A stretch of 64,000 nt of DNA from Syntrophorhabdaceae bacterium (GTDB lineage Bacteria; Desulfobacterota; Syntrophorhabdia; Syntrophorhabdales; Syntrophorhabdaceae). Positions 36,001-42,000 of this stretch are shown here, piece by piece. Every line of letters begins with the position of its first letter. Position 1 is the first letter of the stretch. The stretch spans positions 384,001 through 448,000 of the forward strand of contig CAXXUO010000001.1 in assembly GCA_963666485.2 (NCBI GenBank), given 5' to 3'. The position numbers are program-made.

Positions 36001-39000
36001 CGTCCCCGGGGCATTGAGCATCATGTCGCCCAGCAGCGGGTGTTCGAGGTTGGCAAGTTCCAGGAGCTTGATATCGGTCGTATAATCAAATATGTTCTCG
36101 ATGACCGGAAGGATGCCAAGCACGATGAAACTCCCGGCGATCCCGTTGATGAGAACGAGTGTGACCCTTAAAGAGACACTGCCGGCCGACCGCCCCGTAA
36201 AGACATCGCTCGCAAGCATGAAAAGGCACATCAGGAAGGCCGTGTAGAGCCCGGCCTTGAGTATCGTGTTCCGGTTTTCGCATTTCCCGGAAAAATACGC
36301 CCCCAGTATCGAACCGGCGAATGTGTAGAGGAAAACCCTGAGGCTGTTCTCAAAAGCGAAGGCGAGCGTCGCGGCGTAGACAACCGAAAAGATGATCGCG
36401 ATCTCTGAAAAGAGCACGATACGGATAACCATCGCAAAGACAAAAACAGGGATGACGTAGAAAAGATCTTCGAGACGGCTCTGCGCGTAGCTCTCGAAGA
36501 TCAGGTAGAACGATTTGACGAGAACTACGCAGAACACGGTGAATATCGCGCAGAAGACGAGGTCTCTCTTCGACAGGTAGAATTTTTTTATGTTCTTCTC
36601 GGAGTATTCATACAGGATCGCGACGAGCAGGAAAAGTAGTACGAATACAGCCAGGAATTTCTTCACGACGAAGAAGTCGCGGCGTTCGAGGCTATTGTAT
36701 GCCGCTATTTTTCCCATCTGGCCCGCCGTGATCCTCTCGCCTTCGCGTACAATAACCTCTCCGCGCTTGACGGTGATGTCCGTTCCCGGAACGGTGAAAT
36801 CAATCGGGGCCTTTAAATTCTCCCGCGCGATATCGCCGAGCTGGTATTCGACCATGAAAAACGGGTTTTTGACGCTGACGAGAAGCGCTAACGCCACGGC
36901 AAGGCTGAGGAGGATCAGGAGCTTCCCGTAGCGCACGTACGAGGGAGGTTTATCCTTTCCATTCTGCATTCTTGGACCCCTCCAATTCCAGCCGCCGCGC
37001 CTCGTATGCCTTGATTATCTTCTGCACCAGGGGATGGCGCACAACGTCTTTTTCGGTAAAATGCACAAATTTTATCCCTTTGATATCCCTCAGGATAGTC
37101 CTTACCTCCACGAGCCCGCTCGTTTTTTTGTCGGGAAGGTCGATCTGGGTGATATCGCCGGTGATCACGGTCTTCGATGAGAACCCGAGCCGTGTGAGGA
37201 ACATTTTCATCTGTTCGGAGGCCGTATTCTGTGCCTCATCGAGTATGATAAAGGCATCGTTGAGCGTCCTGCCGCGCATGAACGCGAGAGGCGCTATCTC
37301 TATGACGCCCCTTTCTATCAGCCGTGTCGCCCTGTCCATGTCGACCATGTCGTACAGGGCATCGTAGAGCGGCCGCAGGTACGGGTTCACCTTCTCATAC
37401 ATGGTCCCCGGAAGGTACCCCAGCTTCTCACCCGCCTCGATCGCCGGGCGCGTAAGAACGATCCGCGAGACCTCCCTTCTGTAATAAGCCGCCAGCGCCA
37501 TGGCCATGGCGAGGTAGGTCTTGCCGGTTCCCGCGGGCCCGATGCCGATAACGACATCATATTTTTTCATGGCGTGCACGTATTGACGCTGGTTCTTGCT
37601 TTTGGGCGTGATGAGCTTTTTCGAGCCGGCTATGTAGACCTGGTCTTTTTCGATATCGGGTGTCGCCTGGTGGGCGTTCACGACAAACCTCACCGCATGG
37701 TCGATATCGGAGGCGCTGACCGGAAAACCTTTCTTTACAATACCATGGAGCTCGTTAATGACCTTCCCCGAATCCTCGATATCCTTCTTGCCGCCGATAA
37801 GGGTCAGGTGGTTTCCCCGGATGCTCGCCTTGATATTGAAATATTTCTTGAGATATTTGATGTTTTCTTCACGCGGCCCGAACAGACTTCTCGCCACGTT
37901 TATATCATCGAAGGATAGTCGTAAAAATCCTTCATCAGTTTTCTCTTCCAACAATCCTCTCTTTCTCCCGTAATATTAATCATTAATATAGCACAAATCA
38001 CCATTTTGCAACAGAATCTTAGCTAATCGGAAAAGACTGAAGGACGCCCTCTCTCGCCCGTTCGTCGCTTGCGCTCCTCTCTAGAGTCCCCAGAGTTCGC
38101 GGAGAAAGGCGGAGGCCGCGGGAGTCCGGAGCCGACCAGGCTCCCGCGGCACTTCGATCCTGCCCTTCAGGCAGGATGGACCGCTTGGACCGTTAATTTC
38201 CTTGTATTGTTTTTTTCTTTTCCTCGGCGAAGCCGATGAAAGCGCCGGCTGGTCGTGGTCGGCTCCGCGACCAGCCGGCAAAGTCTTTTTCCTTCGCAGT
38301 TCTCTGTGTTCTCTGTGAGCTCGAGCGAAGCGGGCGAGAGGGTGTCTTTTCTTTTCACCGTGAACTGTTTGAAATTGCAGATGGATTTGTATAGAATATG
38401 CGTCATGCATAAGGTCCTGATCATTGACGACGAAAAGAATATCCTCGACTCGCTTTCGGCGGTGCTCGAGGATGAAGGCTTTGCGGTATCCCGGGCCATG
38501 GACGGCAAGCAAGGCCTGGCGATCTTTGACAGCGAGGCCCCGGACGTGGTCCTTCTCGATGTCTGGATGCCCGAGATGGACGGGATCCAGGTGCTCAAAG
38601 AGATAAAGACCAGGGACAACGACGCGCGGGTCGTCGTGATATCGGGCCACGGGACGATATCGACCGCGGTCGAGGCGGTCAAGATGGGGGCCTACGATTT
38701 CCTCGAAAAGCCGCTTTCCATCGACAAGGTACTCGAAGTGGTGTATCGCAGTATCGGCGCGGATTCCCCTGAGTCACCCGATGTCAAGGATTTCAAGTTC
38801 GAGGCGTCACCCGGGGTCGAGGTCAGGCAAAAAACGATCGGGAAAAGCACGGTCGTGTATGGCGTCGGCCTTCATTCCGGCGTCAAGACAGGCATGATCC
38901 TCCTGCCCATGCCTGAAAACACCGGCATCATCTTTGAAACGATACCTGACGGCGAAAGGATCCCGGCGTATATCGACTATGTTTTTTCAGTCGGGTATGC

Positions 39001-42000
39001 CTCATCGCTCAAGGGCAAGAACAACATCGTTCGCACGGTGGAACACCTCCTGTCGGCCTGCCACATGTATGGGATCACGAACCTCCTCGTCAAGGTGAGC
39101 GAAGAGGTCCCCATCCTCGACGGATCGGCGATAGAGATCTGCACCAAGATCGATGAGGCAGGGATAGTCACACAGTCCGACGGCATTCAGCCGCTCGTCA
39201 TCGCGGACAGGGTCGAGCTCGGGAATCTTCAGAACGGAAAGTACATCGTGGCAGAGCCGTCCGACTCCTTCGAGATCAATTACCATCTCGAGCAGGCAAA
39301 ACCCATCGGCACCCAGGATTATCGCTTCCGCGGCGACACCAGGGATTACGTCGCGAACATAGCCCCCGCACGGACATTCGGTTTTTTGAAAGATTTCGAG
39401 CAGCTGACCAAGATGGGTCTCGGCACCGGCGGAAGGATAAACAATTTCATCATTATCGGTGACGATGAGGTCATAAACACAAAGCTGCGTTTTGACGATG
39501 AGTTCGTGCGCCACAAGGTGCTCGACCTCATCGGCGACATATACCTTCTCAATCGCCCCATTATCGGGAAGATCACCGCCCGCCAGACCGGCCACGTGGA
39601 AAACATCGCACTGGTAAAGGAATTGAAAAACCGGTTCCTAAAATAAAAATCGTTCCACGTTCCACGTTCCACGTTCCACGTTAAGAGACCTGATATCCCA
39701 ATAAATGGCGGGAACCTTTACAACAATTATCGTGAAATTCTTTGTCTTTTAACGTGGAACGTGGAACTTGGAACGTGGAACGGTCTTTATCTTTCCACCA
39801 CATCCTTCTTCCCCTCCGGCTTGTAGATGAACTTGCCGTCGTTGATCGTTGGATTTACCTTGATGTCGGAGAATTCTATCGTGTTGATGTTTCCGGTGAA
39901 TTCGAGGATCTCTATTTTCCTCAAGAGGTTGTTCTTATCGATCCAGAGCTTTGCCAGGTTGACGGACGAGTCTTTTTTCGGGACGAGCTCGAAATACTGC
40001 ATTCCGGCTATCATGCTCTGCTGTTTGACCGTGAAGAGGTTGTCGATGCGGGCAATGTCCTCGACGAGGTCGAAGAAGGTCCCGCCTGTCTTTTCTGCGC
40101 TTACCTTATTTTTCAGGACAAAAGGCTTGTCATCTTCTTCCTGCCACATGTACCGACCGTCATAGAGAAAGAGCTTTCCTTTCGGCTTCGTGTATTTCCA
40201 GATGAATCCCTTGTGCCTCTTGAAAAAGAAATCACCGTCTGCATCCCGTATCTTCTTAATGCTCGCGACGAAGATCTTCTGGTGAAACGACGCCTCCAGG
40301 GAATTTATGCCCGCATACGTTTTTTTAAGGGAATCGAACGGGGACGCTGCCCCGCCCGTTTTTGACTCTTGAGCTATGGACGGCTGTCCTATCAGAATAA
40401 AAACAAAAACCGTGCAAAGAACTGCCCCGACCAACCTCAGATCCGCTTTCTTCCTGCCCTTTCTGTTCATCAATGCTCCGTTCATCGTTTTAATACCTCG
40501 CGGGGCTTTACTCCGTCGGACGGCCCGACGATGCCCTCCTGCTCCATACGCTCTATTATGCGGGCGGCCCTGTTGTACCCTATGCGGAACCGCCTCTGGA
40601 CCATGCTTATCGAGGCCTCACCTTTCTGCGACACAAATTCCACCGCTTCCTGGTATTTCTCGTCATCGAGGGCCTCGCCCTCGTCTTCCTCTTCCTTTTC
40701 CTCGAGTATCTCGTGATGATACGTCGGGGCGCCCTGCTGCTTCAAGAATTCCACGATCCTCTTGATCTCGCCTTCCGAGACGTACGAGCCGTGAAGCCGC
40801 TGAAGCCTGCCGATGCCGGGACTCAAGAACAGCATGTCGCCGTAGCCGAGAAGGCTCTCCGCGCCGTTCGTGTCCAATATGGTCCTTGAATCGACCTTCG
40901 AGAAGACCTTGCATGCCACGCGGGCGGGAAAATTGGCCTTTATGATACCCGTCAGGACATCGACGGACGGCCTCTGCGTCGCGAGGATGAGATGAATGCC
41001 CGACGCCCGGGCCATCTGTGCGAGCCGGGCGATATATTCCTCAACCTCCTTGGGGGAGACCATCATGAGGTCGGCAAGCTCGTCAATGACGACGACGATA
41101 TACGGCAGTGCCTCGCCTCCCTCGCGGGTTATTTTATGATTGTATTTCTCGATATTGCGCACGCCCTTCTGCGCCATCATGCCGTAGCGCCTCTCCATTT
41201 CGTCCGTCATCCATCGCAGGGCCGTCTTCGCGTTCCGGGCGTTCGTCACGACCGGCAGGAGAAGGTGCGGGATGCCCTCGTAAAAGGAGAGCTCGAGCAT
41301 CTTGAGGTCGATCATCAGGAAGCGGCAGTGGGCGGGGGTCGCCTTGAAGAGAACGCTCAGGATCATGCTGTTGAGCGAGACGGATTTCCCGGAACCGGTC
41401 GCGCCGGCGACGAGAAGGTGCGGCATTTTCGCCAGGTCCGCCACAAATGATTCTCCGGCTATTGTTTTTCCCAGCACCAGAGTGAGGTGCGATTGAGATG
41501 ACGAGAATGTCTTCGATTCGATTATCTCCCGGATATACACCGTTTCCCGGTCCTTGTTCGGTATCTCGATGCCGACGACCGCCTTTCCCGGTATCGGGGC
41601 GATGATCCGTATCGAGACCGCGCTCAAGGCCATGGCGAGATCGTCGGACAGGTTGGATATCTTGCTTACCTTGACGCCCGGCGCCGGCTCGAATTCGTAC
41701 ATGGTGATGACAGGGCCGGGCCTGACCTCCGTGACCCGCCCGTCGATCCCGTAGTCTTTCAGCTTCTTTTCGAGGATCGATGCGTTGGCCTGGATGGAGT
41801 CCTTGTCTATCTTCGTCTCTTTTTTCTCTATGGTATCGAGCAGCGACGTGTCGGGAAGCTTGTACGGCCCGATCTCTTTGAAAAATTCAAATGTTTCCTG
41901 GACGGCGGCGGCGGCTTTCTTTTCCGCCGGTTTTGCTGCCGGAGGCTCGTCCTCTTTTTTCTCCTGCGTCACTTTTATTTCACGCCGGCGCTCGGCCTTC

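Follow-up and report, generated by a model that had tools for sequence, protein, structure and literature searches.

An NtrX-type phospho-receiver fused to the only LpxC of a Syntrophorhabdaceae bacterium: a candidate for two-component control of lipid A synthesis

The only lpxC gene of a Syntrophorhabdaceae bacterium raises the question of why the enzyme it encodes, which commits the cell to producing outer-membrane lipid A, should begin with a phospho-receiver domain, and which kinase would act on it. The gene lies at 38405..39646 (+ strand) of the window (the whole stretch of DNA analysed, 64 000 nucleotides) and was delimited by ORF and profile searches. In the 413-residue protein, Pfam Response_reg matched residues 4–113 with 109.6 bits, above its cut-off, and Pfam LpxC (PF03331) matched residues 142–408 with 267.2 bits against a cut-off of 27; the TIGR00325 lpxC model scored 226 bits (cut-off 187.25). 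The first-pass annotation had described this as the sole LpxC of the genome, and both searches bore this out: there was one PF03331 match in the whole genome, which is 99.1% complete, and one tblastn match with the LpxC part as query.

The start had previously been placed at Met51 of the predicted gene g00390 (position 38405), and this was upheld by relatives that begin at the same Met and by a promoter just upstream. The promoter is sigma-70-like (38369..38397, +; TTGAAA, 17 nt, TAGAAT) and ends 7 nt before the ATG, so that a leaderless or nearly leaderless mRNA is predicted. Promoters 6–10 nt before the start were found at 34 of 38 loci of families f1–f3, compared with 3% of shuffles (the genomes being related and not independent), and the same spacing occurred at 0 of 11 loci of family f4. 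No Shine–Dalgarno-like word was found in the 38 f1–f3 loci, and no sigma-54-like pattern within 60 nt upstream across 49 loci. A longer frame from a GTG at 38255 (463 aa) was rejected because its extension contains the promoter and the relatives begin at the Met. A separate translation start for LpxC within the linker was also rejected; the linker holds no in-frame start codon here and no internal start was conserved across 50 loci, of which two were left unparsed.

The receiver domain (38414..38743, +; residues 4–113) carries W54 and the complete receiver checklist of acidic pocket (D8, D9, E10), phospho-Asp (D52; codon 38558–38560, +), Ser/Thr (S80), aromatic switch (F99) and Lys (K102); numbered from the true start, D8/D9/E10, D52, S80 and K102 are the residues given earlier as D58/D59/E60, D102, S130 and K152. 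Both PF00072 and PF03331 were present in the best 120 of 7966 homologues, at 67–92% identity, as had been claimed before. The claimed invariance of the site also held, each of these six residues being kept in 120 of 120 rows (the protein studied, P0001, plus 119 matches, the N-terminally cut P0038 having been dropped by a length filter). Among 375 fusions D52 was kept in 373 and S/T80 and K102 in 374 each, down to ~33% identity. The phospho-Asp was lost in two fusions of the same branch (P0144, Asn; P0152, Ser), so one lineage manages without it.

The first-pass annotation had called the receiver NtrC-type; it is indeed a receiver, but its best NCBIfam receiver match was NtrX (NF051870). With a stand-alone NtrX receiver as the query, the fused receiver scored 123 bits at 53% identity, versus 94 bits and 39% for the next receiver of the genome. 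The genome holds 122 receiver domains, and of the 111 scored for signatures only the fused one showed the helix-1 signature together with DxW. The whole protein scored 131.9 bits with the NtrX model against a cut-off of 600, and the AAA+ and Fis-type HTH domains are absent; the protein thus appears to descend from NtrX without qualifying as a member of that family. A receiver tree built from 122 columns left the deep forks unresolved and recovered no single NtrX clade. Fusion-specific receiver residues were also sought, but all 120 unfused NtrX rows belonged to a single narrow group (79–98% identity to the query) and the differences cannot therefore be assigned to fusion.

An orphan NtrY-type kinase with the domain order NtrY_N–HAMP–PAS–HisKA–HATPase is encoded at C1:225868–228003 of this genome (G000), ~195 kb from the fusion gene. 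A single NtrY orthologue was found in 91 of 96 genomes of the class, and no receiver lay within 1.5 kb of ntrY at any of 30 class loci. When the class was searched with the stand-alone NtrX receiver, the fused receiver was the sole match in 88 of 91 cases. The other three (G032, G082, G083) were rejected as stand-alone NtrX as their matches lack DxW, leaving no stand-alone NtrX among the 91 matches of this receiver search; NtrY and the fused receiver are thus retained one to one. Of 70 loci fetched outside the class search, 19 had ntrY as the gene immediately upstream of the fusion; the remaining 51 had no adjacent ntrY, linkage being scored at the locus only and some loci reaching a contig edge. 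The orphan kinase shares its H-box with the operon-partner NtrY kinases of relatives and, by these comparisons, is the likely kinase for the receiver. Apparent kinase–receiver–LpxC triple fusions (frames of 1007–1423 aa in G223, G193 and G163) were discarded as GC-rich alternative frames over ntrY.

The fusion is unbroken in 85 of the 96 class genomes. Unfused lpxC was looked for in five of the seven class genomes without a fusion match (G086 and G095 lying outside the search), and these had no LpxC at all. The fusion had been described as conserved in the lineage, which is correct but understates its range, as it was found in several phyla. Relatives show three arrangements: lpxC beside ntrY–ntrX, whole NtrX fused to LpxC, and receiver–LpxC. 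Among 20 loci of the phylum with a stand-alone lpxC, seven showed the order lpxC–x–ntrY, with ntrX next in six of the seven. In the alignments the variable linker of the short form (38756..38821, +; approximately residues 118–139, pLDDT 54–62) stands where the longer relatives have their AAA+ and HTH domains. Of 96 long fusions, none has GAFTGA or the arginine-finger motif, one has the Walker B DE and 94 have Walker A; GAFTGA was present in 119 of 120 unfused NtrX relatives, all from one narrow group. By these motifs the long relatives fail as sigma-54 enhancer-binding proteins and their sigma-54 motor appears to be dead. Fused and stand-alone domains were split in the LpxC tree with support of 100/100, the fused domains forming one clade, as from a single origin. 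Short forms grouped together in none of 200 bootstrap trees, and the receiver–LpxC short form appears to have arisen several times; one isolate that carries it is Desulfopila sp. IMCC35006. Five stand-alone-looking LpxC rows fall inside the fused clade; one is a frameshift, and the others may be either fragments or genuine losses.

These forms also bear on a very improbable reading in which the signal flows in reverse, with LpxC occupancy altering the receiver and NtrY signalling, or in which acetyl phosphate or a different kinase serves the receiver. The genome offers at least 28 kinase-like H-boxes besides its many receivers, and Walker A and an HTH-like segment survive in the long forms, as in atypical sigma-54-independent enhancer-binding proteins (PMC6158489), so that DNA binding is still possible for them. 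The short form, however, has no DNA-binding domain, a second NtrX-type receiver that would pass a signal on was not found, and the operon link is specific to ntrY.

The LpxC deacetylase domain (38828..39628, +; residues 142–408) has the zinc and catalytic motifs TxEH, HKxxD and the distal His, together with T324, F325 and D378. Residues E213, H214, H370, K371, D374 and H397, which we take to be zinc ligands or catalytic residues, align with Aquifex LpxC and were kept in 375 of 375 fusions; the structure model superposed on Aquifex LpxC with an rmsd of 1.3 Å. For the rest of the lipid A pathway, lpxA, lpxB and lpxK scored above their cut-offs in the genome, and an lpxD-like paralogue that scores under the lpxA cut-off adjoins lpxA. 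Fused enzymes lack the C-terminal tail (median 0 residues versus 21 in stand-alone LpxC), the genome gave no match to YejM (PF11893) and its sole match to the LapB-type zinc ribbon (PF18073) is RadA, as judged by its sequence. With neither tail, YejM nor ribbon-type LapB found, the enzyme would fall outside the FtsH–LapB–YejM type. It is conceivable, if unlikely, that NtrY phosphorylates the receiver and thereby affects not the activity but the amount or place of LpxC, by a degradation signal, dimer formation or a membrane tether via NtrY. LpxC is often under proteolytic or localization control (PMC12444477). With no YejM match, only RadA for the ribbon and a tail-less enzyme, another turnover route would then be needed. 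The α4–β5 region, a usual dimer face, is nearly invariant across the class.

Two AlphaFold models of fusions gave pTM values of 0.90 and 0.88 with a poorly predicted linker, where a freely moving receiver would limit pTM to ~0.67–0.75. Both models thus place the receiver on the enzyme, as read from the models' own confidence and not from interface coordinates. A candidate surface is found in strands 149–168 of LpxC domain I (38849..38908, +), where positions 150, 152, 163 and 165 (V150, Y152, G163, I165) were nonpolar in fractions of 0.99, 0.71, 1.00 and 0.87 of 95 fusions, versus 0.18, 0.15, 0.10 and 0.25 of 72 stand-alone LpxC; K230 of a neighbouring strand joins this face, and the outer face of domain II is polar in fused and stand-alone enzymes alike. 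That the face points outward is judged by the alternating pattern together with the Aquifex alignment, not by coordinates. We propose this face as the docking site for the receiver, although its partner could instead be the linker, a second subunit or some other protein. Folded as separate chains, the receiver and LpxC reached a complex score of 0.04 against a mark of 0.32, with no controls folded, and interdomain covariation in the 375 fusions, with 394 columns and an effective depth of 111, gave scattered, buried top pairs; neither result counts for or against a contact. A receiver placed firmly on the enzyme in both models and a conserved nonpolar face exceed the needs of a tethered tag, which speaks against control of amount or place. 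The same face is compatible with a permanent cap, and we think it improbable, but worth stating, that the receiver is a structural relic kept for folding, covering a face of LpxC that turned nonpolar once the fusion had formed, with phosphorylation irrelevant; the two fusions without the phospho-Asp and the stand-alone-looking rows in the fused clade would fit. Such a relic is hard to reconcile with near-complete retention of D52, S/T80 and K102 in distant fusions, with a kinase kept throughout most of the class though no other NtrX-type receiver was found, and with repeated loss of AAA+ and HTH while the receiver was kept.

Two-component control of LpxC is well supported by these comparisons. 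Since a phosphorylation switch left from NtrX is built into the only LpxC, the enzyme is probably under the direct control of a sensor kinase; the earlier claim of such control gains comparative evidence, a named likely kinase and a fusion origin, with the word 'directly' carried by inference. We lean towards a mechanism in which NtrY acts on the receiver by phosphorylation and the receiver in turn tunes the activity of LpxC. The fusion would be the response regulator of an NtrY–NtrX pair with LpxC itself as the output. The membrane kinase would phosphorylate or dephosphorylate D52, and the receiver, seated on the outside of the domain I sheet, would shift its contact with its phosphorylation state, altering deacetylase activity and setting lipid A flux without a transcription step. 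Historically, lpxC would have stood beside ntrY–ntrX and ntrX would have fused to it once; the sigma-54 motor would then have died, with AAA+ and HTH deleted several times, and in this class the kinase gene would have moved away and the fusion gained its own promoter. The sign is a guess that tilts modestly towards activation by phosphorylation, because the unfused relatives are intact sigma-54 activators beside lpxC and because phosphorylation releases receiver–enzyme proteins of the CheB kind. The opposite sign is seen in the alphaproteobacteria tested, where NtrYX lowers lpxC transcripts (PMC7240162). More tentatively, and at somewhat less than even confidence, a two-protein circuit of membrane kinase and LpxC may switch catalysis in about a quarter of the sampled genomes of the phylum and in lineages of several other phyla, LpxC control being the ancestral core job of NtrY–NtrX, exerted first through a promoter and, once the two had fused, on the enzyme.

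LpxC is a drug target that determines how fast outer membrane is made, and its control outside the enterobacteria is largely open; the fusion family would offer a further mode, direct phospho-control, testable with two purified proteins. For NtrY, where both the signal and the core output are under debate, it would supply a single enzymatic read-out, and the family would record the stepwise conversion of a transcription factor into a regulatory domain of an enzyme. No paper on a receiver–LpxC fusion was found in a literature search that left most subscription journals, response-regulator domain censuses and supplements outside its scope. The modes of LpxC control covered by two recent reviews are proteolysis, transcription and the binding of MurA or LapB; the words fusion, fused and receiver are absent from both.

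Of known systems, NtrY–NtrX (Brucella NtrX, PDB entries 4D6X and 5M7N; Rhodobacter sphaeroides NtrYX) shares the receiver type, the kinase domain order and the tie to lpxC. In R. sphaeroides, loss of NtrYX raised lpxC transcripts 8.8-fold and roughly doubled LPS (PMC7240162), yet an NtrX site at lpxC was not found there. Known NtrX proteins are transcription factors, whereas the fusion lacks AAA+ and HTH and has an enzyme as its output, and in this class, unlike NtrY–NtrX pairs, the kinase gene is unlinked. Desulfovibrio vulgaris DVU2931–DVU2934, of the same broad group, includes a sigma-54 two-component regulator with lpxC as its single target, and in S. fumaroxidans lpxC lies directly upstream of the orthologous operon (PMC3333781). 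This S. fumaroxidans order is that of the unfused loci; the D. vulgaris system is likewise dedicated to lpxC, but transcriptional and unfused. Stand-alone LpxC (Aquifex aeolicus, P. aeruginosa, E. coli) has its fold and catalytic residues in common with the fusion and can be switched by the bound proteins MurA and LapB (PMC12444477, PMC11046580). Control by MurA or by LapB–FtsH–YejM is thus a protein-bound precedent, while the regulator of the fusion is covalent and predicted to be phosphorylatable; the fusion differs further in its missing C-terminal tail and nonpolar domain I face, and searches with the families used found neither YejM nor LapB. Enzyme outputs are also known from the response regulators CheB, PleD, REC-HD-GYP and REC-PP2C, which join a receiver to a catalytic domain as in the fusion, but their outputs are signalling enzymes. 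The output of the fusion instead catalyses the committed step of a biosynthetic pathway for the envelope and, unlike the CheB/PleD type, the fusion would have arisen by reduction of a transcription factor.

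The receiver-LpxC gene occupies window positions 38405–39646 on the plus strand and encodes 413 residues, with the receiver domain at 4–113 and LpxC at 142–408. Profile and sequence searches of the source genome (99.1% complete), which also encodes lpxA, lpxB and lpxK, recovered no other LpxC copy, and the first-pass annotation was right to call it the sole one; both domains were likewise present, as it had claimed for relatives, in 120/120 homologues listed, the named sources being Syntrophorhabdaceae, Syntrophus and unclassified Proteobacteria. Across 375 distinct fusions S/T80 and K102 were each kept in 374 and the phospho-Asp D52 in 373. 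W54 and the LpxC residues E213, H214, H370, K371, D374 and H397 were found in all 375, and both halves look functional. D52 is replaced by Asn or Ser in P0144 and P0152, two proteins on one branch that represent natural pseudo-receiver versions of the fusion.

The receiver had been annotated as NtrC-type; the best NCBIfam receiver model is instead NtrX. The stand-alone NtrX receiver of L132, a Methylomirabilota locus, matched the fused receiver with 123 bits (53%) versus 94 bits (39%) for the next-best receiver in the source genome. Of the 122 receivers found in this genome 111 were scored, and the fused receiver alone combined the DxW motif with the helix-1 pattern of NtrY partners, the positions that presumably matter being chosen from OmpR–EnvZ work. 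The receiver tree is too short to confirm the type by itself; on the sequence criteria the fused receiver is NtrX-type.

A single NtrY-type membrane sensor kinase (711 aa; NtrY_N, HAMP, PAS, HisKA and HATPase) is encoded in the source genome, G000 (C1:225868–228003; positions 9869–12004, minus strand, of fetched locus L003), with no regulator gene behind it. The context of this orphan is conserved, with two upstream genes tentatively read as rluA and pgeF and, downstream, putative smpB and tmRNA genes recognised by eye. One NtrY orthologue per genome was present in 91/96 genomes of the class Syntrophorhabdia, and no receiver lay within 1.5 kb of ntrY in the 30 class loci fetched. The fusion was unbroken in 85/96 genomes and in pieces in four more (three at contig ends, one frameshifted); no LpxC of any kind was found in the five searched of the seven genomes without a fusion match. 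With the L132 NtrX receiver as class query and at most 46 candidates scored per genome, 88/91 matches were the fused receiver, coordinates being compared by eye; the other three were rejected as stand-alone NtrX because DxW was absent. Within the reach of these searches, neither the kinase nor the fusion thus has any family partner but the other. In loci fetched outside the class search ntrY lay directly upstream of the fusion in 19/70, with an H-box closely resembling the orphan kinase's, and was not directly upstream in 51/70, including Acidobacteriota, some of these loci stopping at contig edges. Reverse signalling, or control by another kinase, is considered quite improbable.

AlphaFold2 returned a pTM of 0.90 for the source protein (linker pLDDT 54–62). 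A relative sharing 47% identity with it, folded with an alignment omitting rows P0001–P0122, reached 0.88 (linker <50); by calculation a freely moving receiver would cap pTM near 0.67–0.75, and the observed values need an inter-domain error of ∼3–6 Å. The modelled LpxC part fitted Aquifex LpxC at 1.3 Å. In the domain I sheet, positions 150, 152, 163 and 165, which alternate along the strands, were nonpolar in fractions of 0.99, 0.71, 1.00 and 0.87 of 95 fusions versus 0.18, 0.15, 0.10 and 0.25 of 72 stand-alone LpxC; position 230 was Lys in 93/95 fusions and mostly Glu in stand-alone LpxC, and the matching domain II face was polar in both. Their alternating pattern, taken with the alignment to Aquifex LpxC, leads us to infer that the four residues face outward, and we propose this face as a candidate receiver contact, its evidence being independent of the model pTM. 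Its strands flank the GxGLH loop, which lines the substrate site and could provide a route for allostery.

NtrY would set the phosphorylation state of D52, and the docked receiver would thereby tune LpxC activity; we rate this the likeliest mechanism, with modest confidence. Phosphorylation is given a slight preference as the activating state, although alphaproteobacterial data point the opposite way. The C-terminal tail has a median of 0 residues in fused LpxC versus 21 in stand-alone LpxC; that the receiver controls LpxC turnover, dimer state or location is possible but rather unlikely.

Representative search and Pfam scans gave three forms: receiver-AAA+(-HTH)-LpxC (650–736 aa), receiver-HTH-LpxC (∼500 aa) and receiver-LpxC (412–483 aa). 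Record labels assign them to Syntrophobacteraceae, Desulfomonile, Desulfocapsaceae, Nitrospinota, Nitrospirota, Binatia, Myxococcota and several Acidobacteriota classes. Fused-type LpxC (rows at E 3.4e-71 or better, followed by a gap to 7.7e-56) was counted in 82/301 genomes drawn from the phylum Desulfobacterota; of the 20 loci fetched, 19 proved to be fusions and a contig end truncated the remaining one. Fusions on contigs labelled archaeon, Patescibacteria and Enterobacteriaceae (L057, L072, L089) group with proteins of other lineages, and L061, labelled Syntrophorhabdus, lies outside the Syntrophorhabdia branch; all four are probably binning errors. Single loci showed a long fusion in two frames (L055 3173–5670), a frameshifted short fusion (L078 6986–8256) and a fusion followed by a weak second LpxC-like ORF (L085 3717–4616).

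Twenty of the phylum's loci with a stand-alone lpxC were chosen non-randomly from the best-scoring rows across families; ntrY lay just downstream of lpxC in seven, followed by ntrX in six of these; in L132 DUF4390 separates lpxC and ntrY. The sigma-54 motor motif GAFTGA was kept in 119/120 unfused relatives of the L132 regulator; the 96 long fusions retained Walker A in 94, the Walker B DE pair in one, and GAFTGA and the arginine-finger motif in none. In a FastTree of 183 LpxC domains a branch with support 100 set off all 95 fused rows, accompanied by nine fragment rows and five rows without a receiver (one a frameshift); IQ-TREE on 54 chosen rows without those 14 separated fused from stand-alone at 100/100. 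The short forms made one group in 0/200 trees of an IQ-TREE bootstrap short of fully settled, and the receiver tree again puts P0137 beside P0140 and groups P0144 with P0129. The root depends on the stand-alone rows, which were those nearest to the fused profile. The simplest account is a single fusion, after which the sigma-54 motor died and AAA+ and HTH were deleted more than once, the receiver being retained; that the receiver is a structural relic is judged unlikely.

The gene sits on its own, with a divergent phoH operon on one side and convergent lolA on the other. A sigma-70-like promoter (window 38369–38405 region, plus strand) ends 7 nt upstream of the ATG, which fixes the start at 38405; the spacing was equal in 34/38 loci of three class families, f1–f3 (3% of shuffles), and no Shine–Dalgarno-like word was seen in the same loci. 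Transcription would then begin on the ATG or beside it, and a leaderless mRNA is predicted in three of the four families. In the fourth, f4, no promoter stood at such spacing (0/11 loci, L034–L044), and a gene of ∼200 aa, DUF3786 in the one locus scanned (L036 8858–9469), usually precedes and in most overlaps the start of the fusion. No conserved start codon was found inside the linker. Several f1–f3 genomes retain the divergent phoH, 7TM-HD, ybeY and lnt operon (window 32601–37954) next to the fusion. A G+C-rich hairpin of 15 pairs followed by a T run (38244–38279) and other palindromic stretches lie between phoH and the fusion. Short tandem repeats of ∼7–8 nt fill several intergenic spaces (39654–39680, 39755–39782 and ∼28950–29150; L003 9690–9860), those between lpxC and lolA on facing strands.

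Published work reports lpxC as the single target of DVU2934 (PMC3333781) and inhibition of LpxC by LapB (PMC11046580); in the ntrYX study deletion raised lpxC mRNA 8.8-fold and LPS ∼twofold, with no NtrX site at lpxC (PMC7240162). The literature considered also included PMC4114195, 10.1101/2021.11.05.467447, PMC3162934 and PMC6158489; the words fusion, fused and receiver did not occur in PMC12444477 and PMC13333357. No description of a receiver-LpxC fusion was found in this search, which covered main texts largely outside subscription journals, and some domain census may mention it; the fusion is real and conserved, and apparently undescribed. The known kinds to which it relates are the receiver-enzyme regulator, the NtrY–NtrX system and the protein-controlled LpxC.
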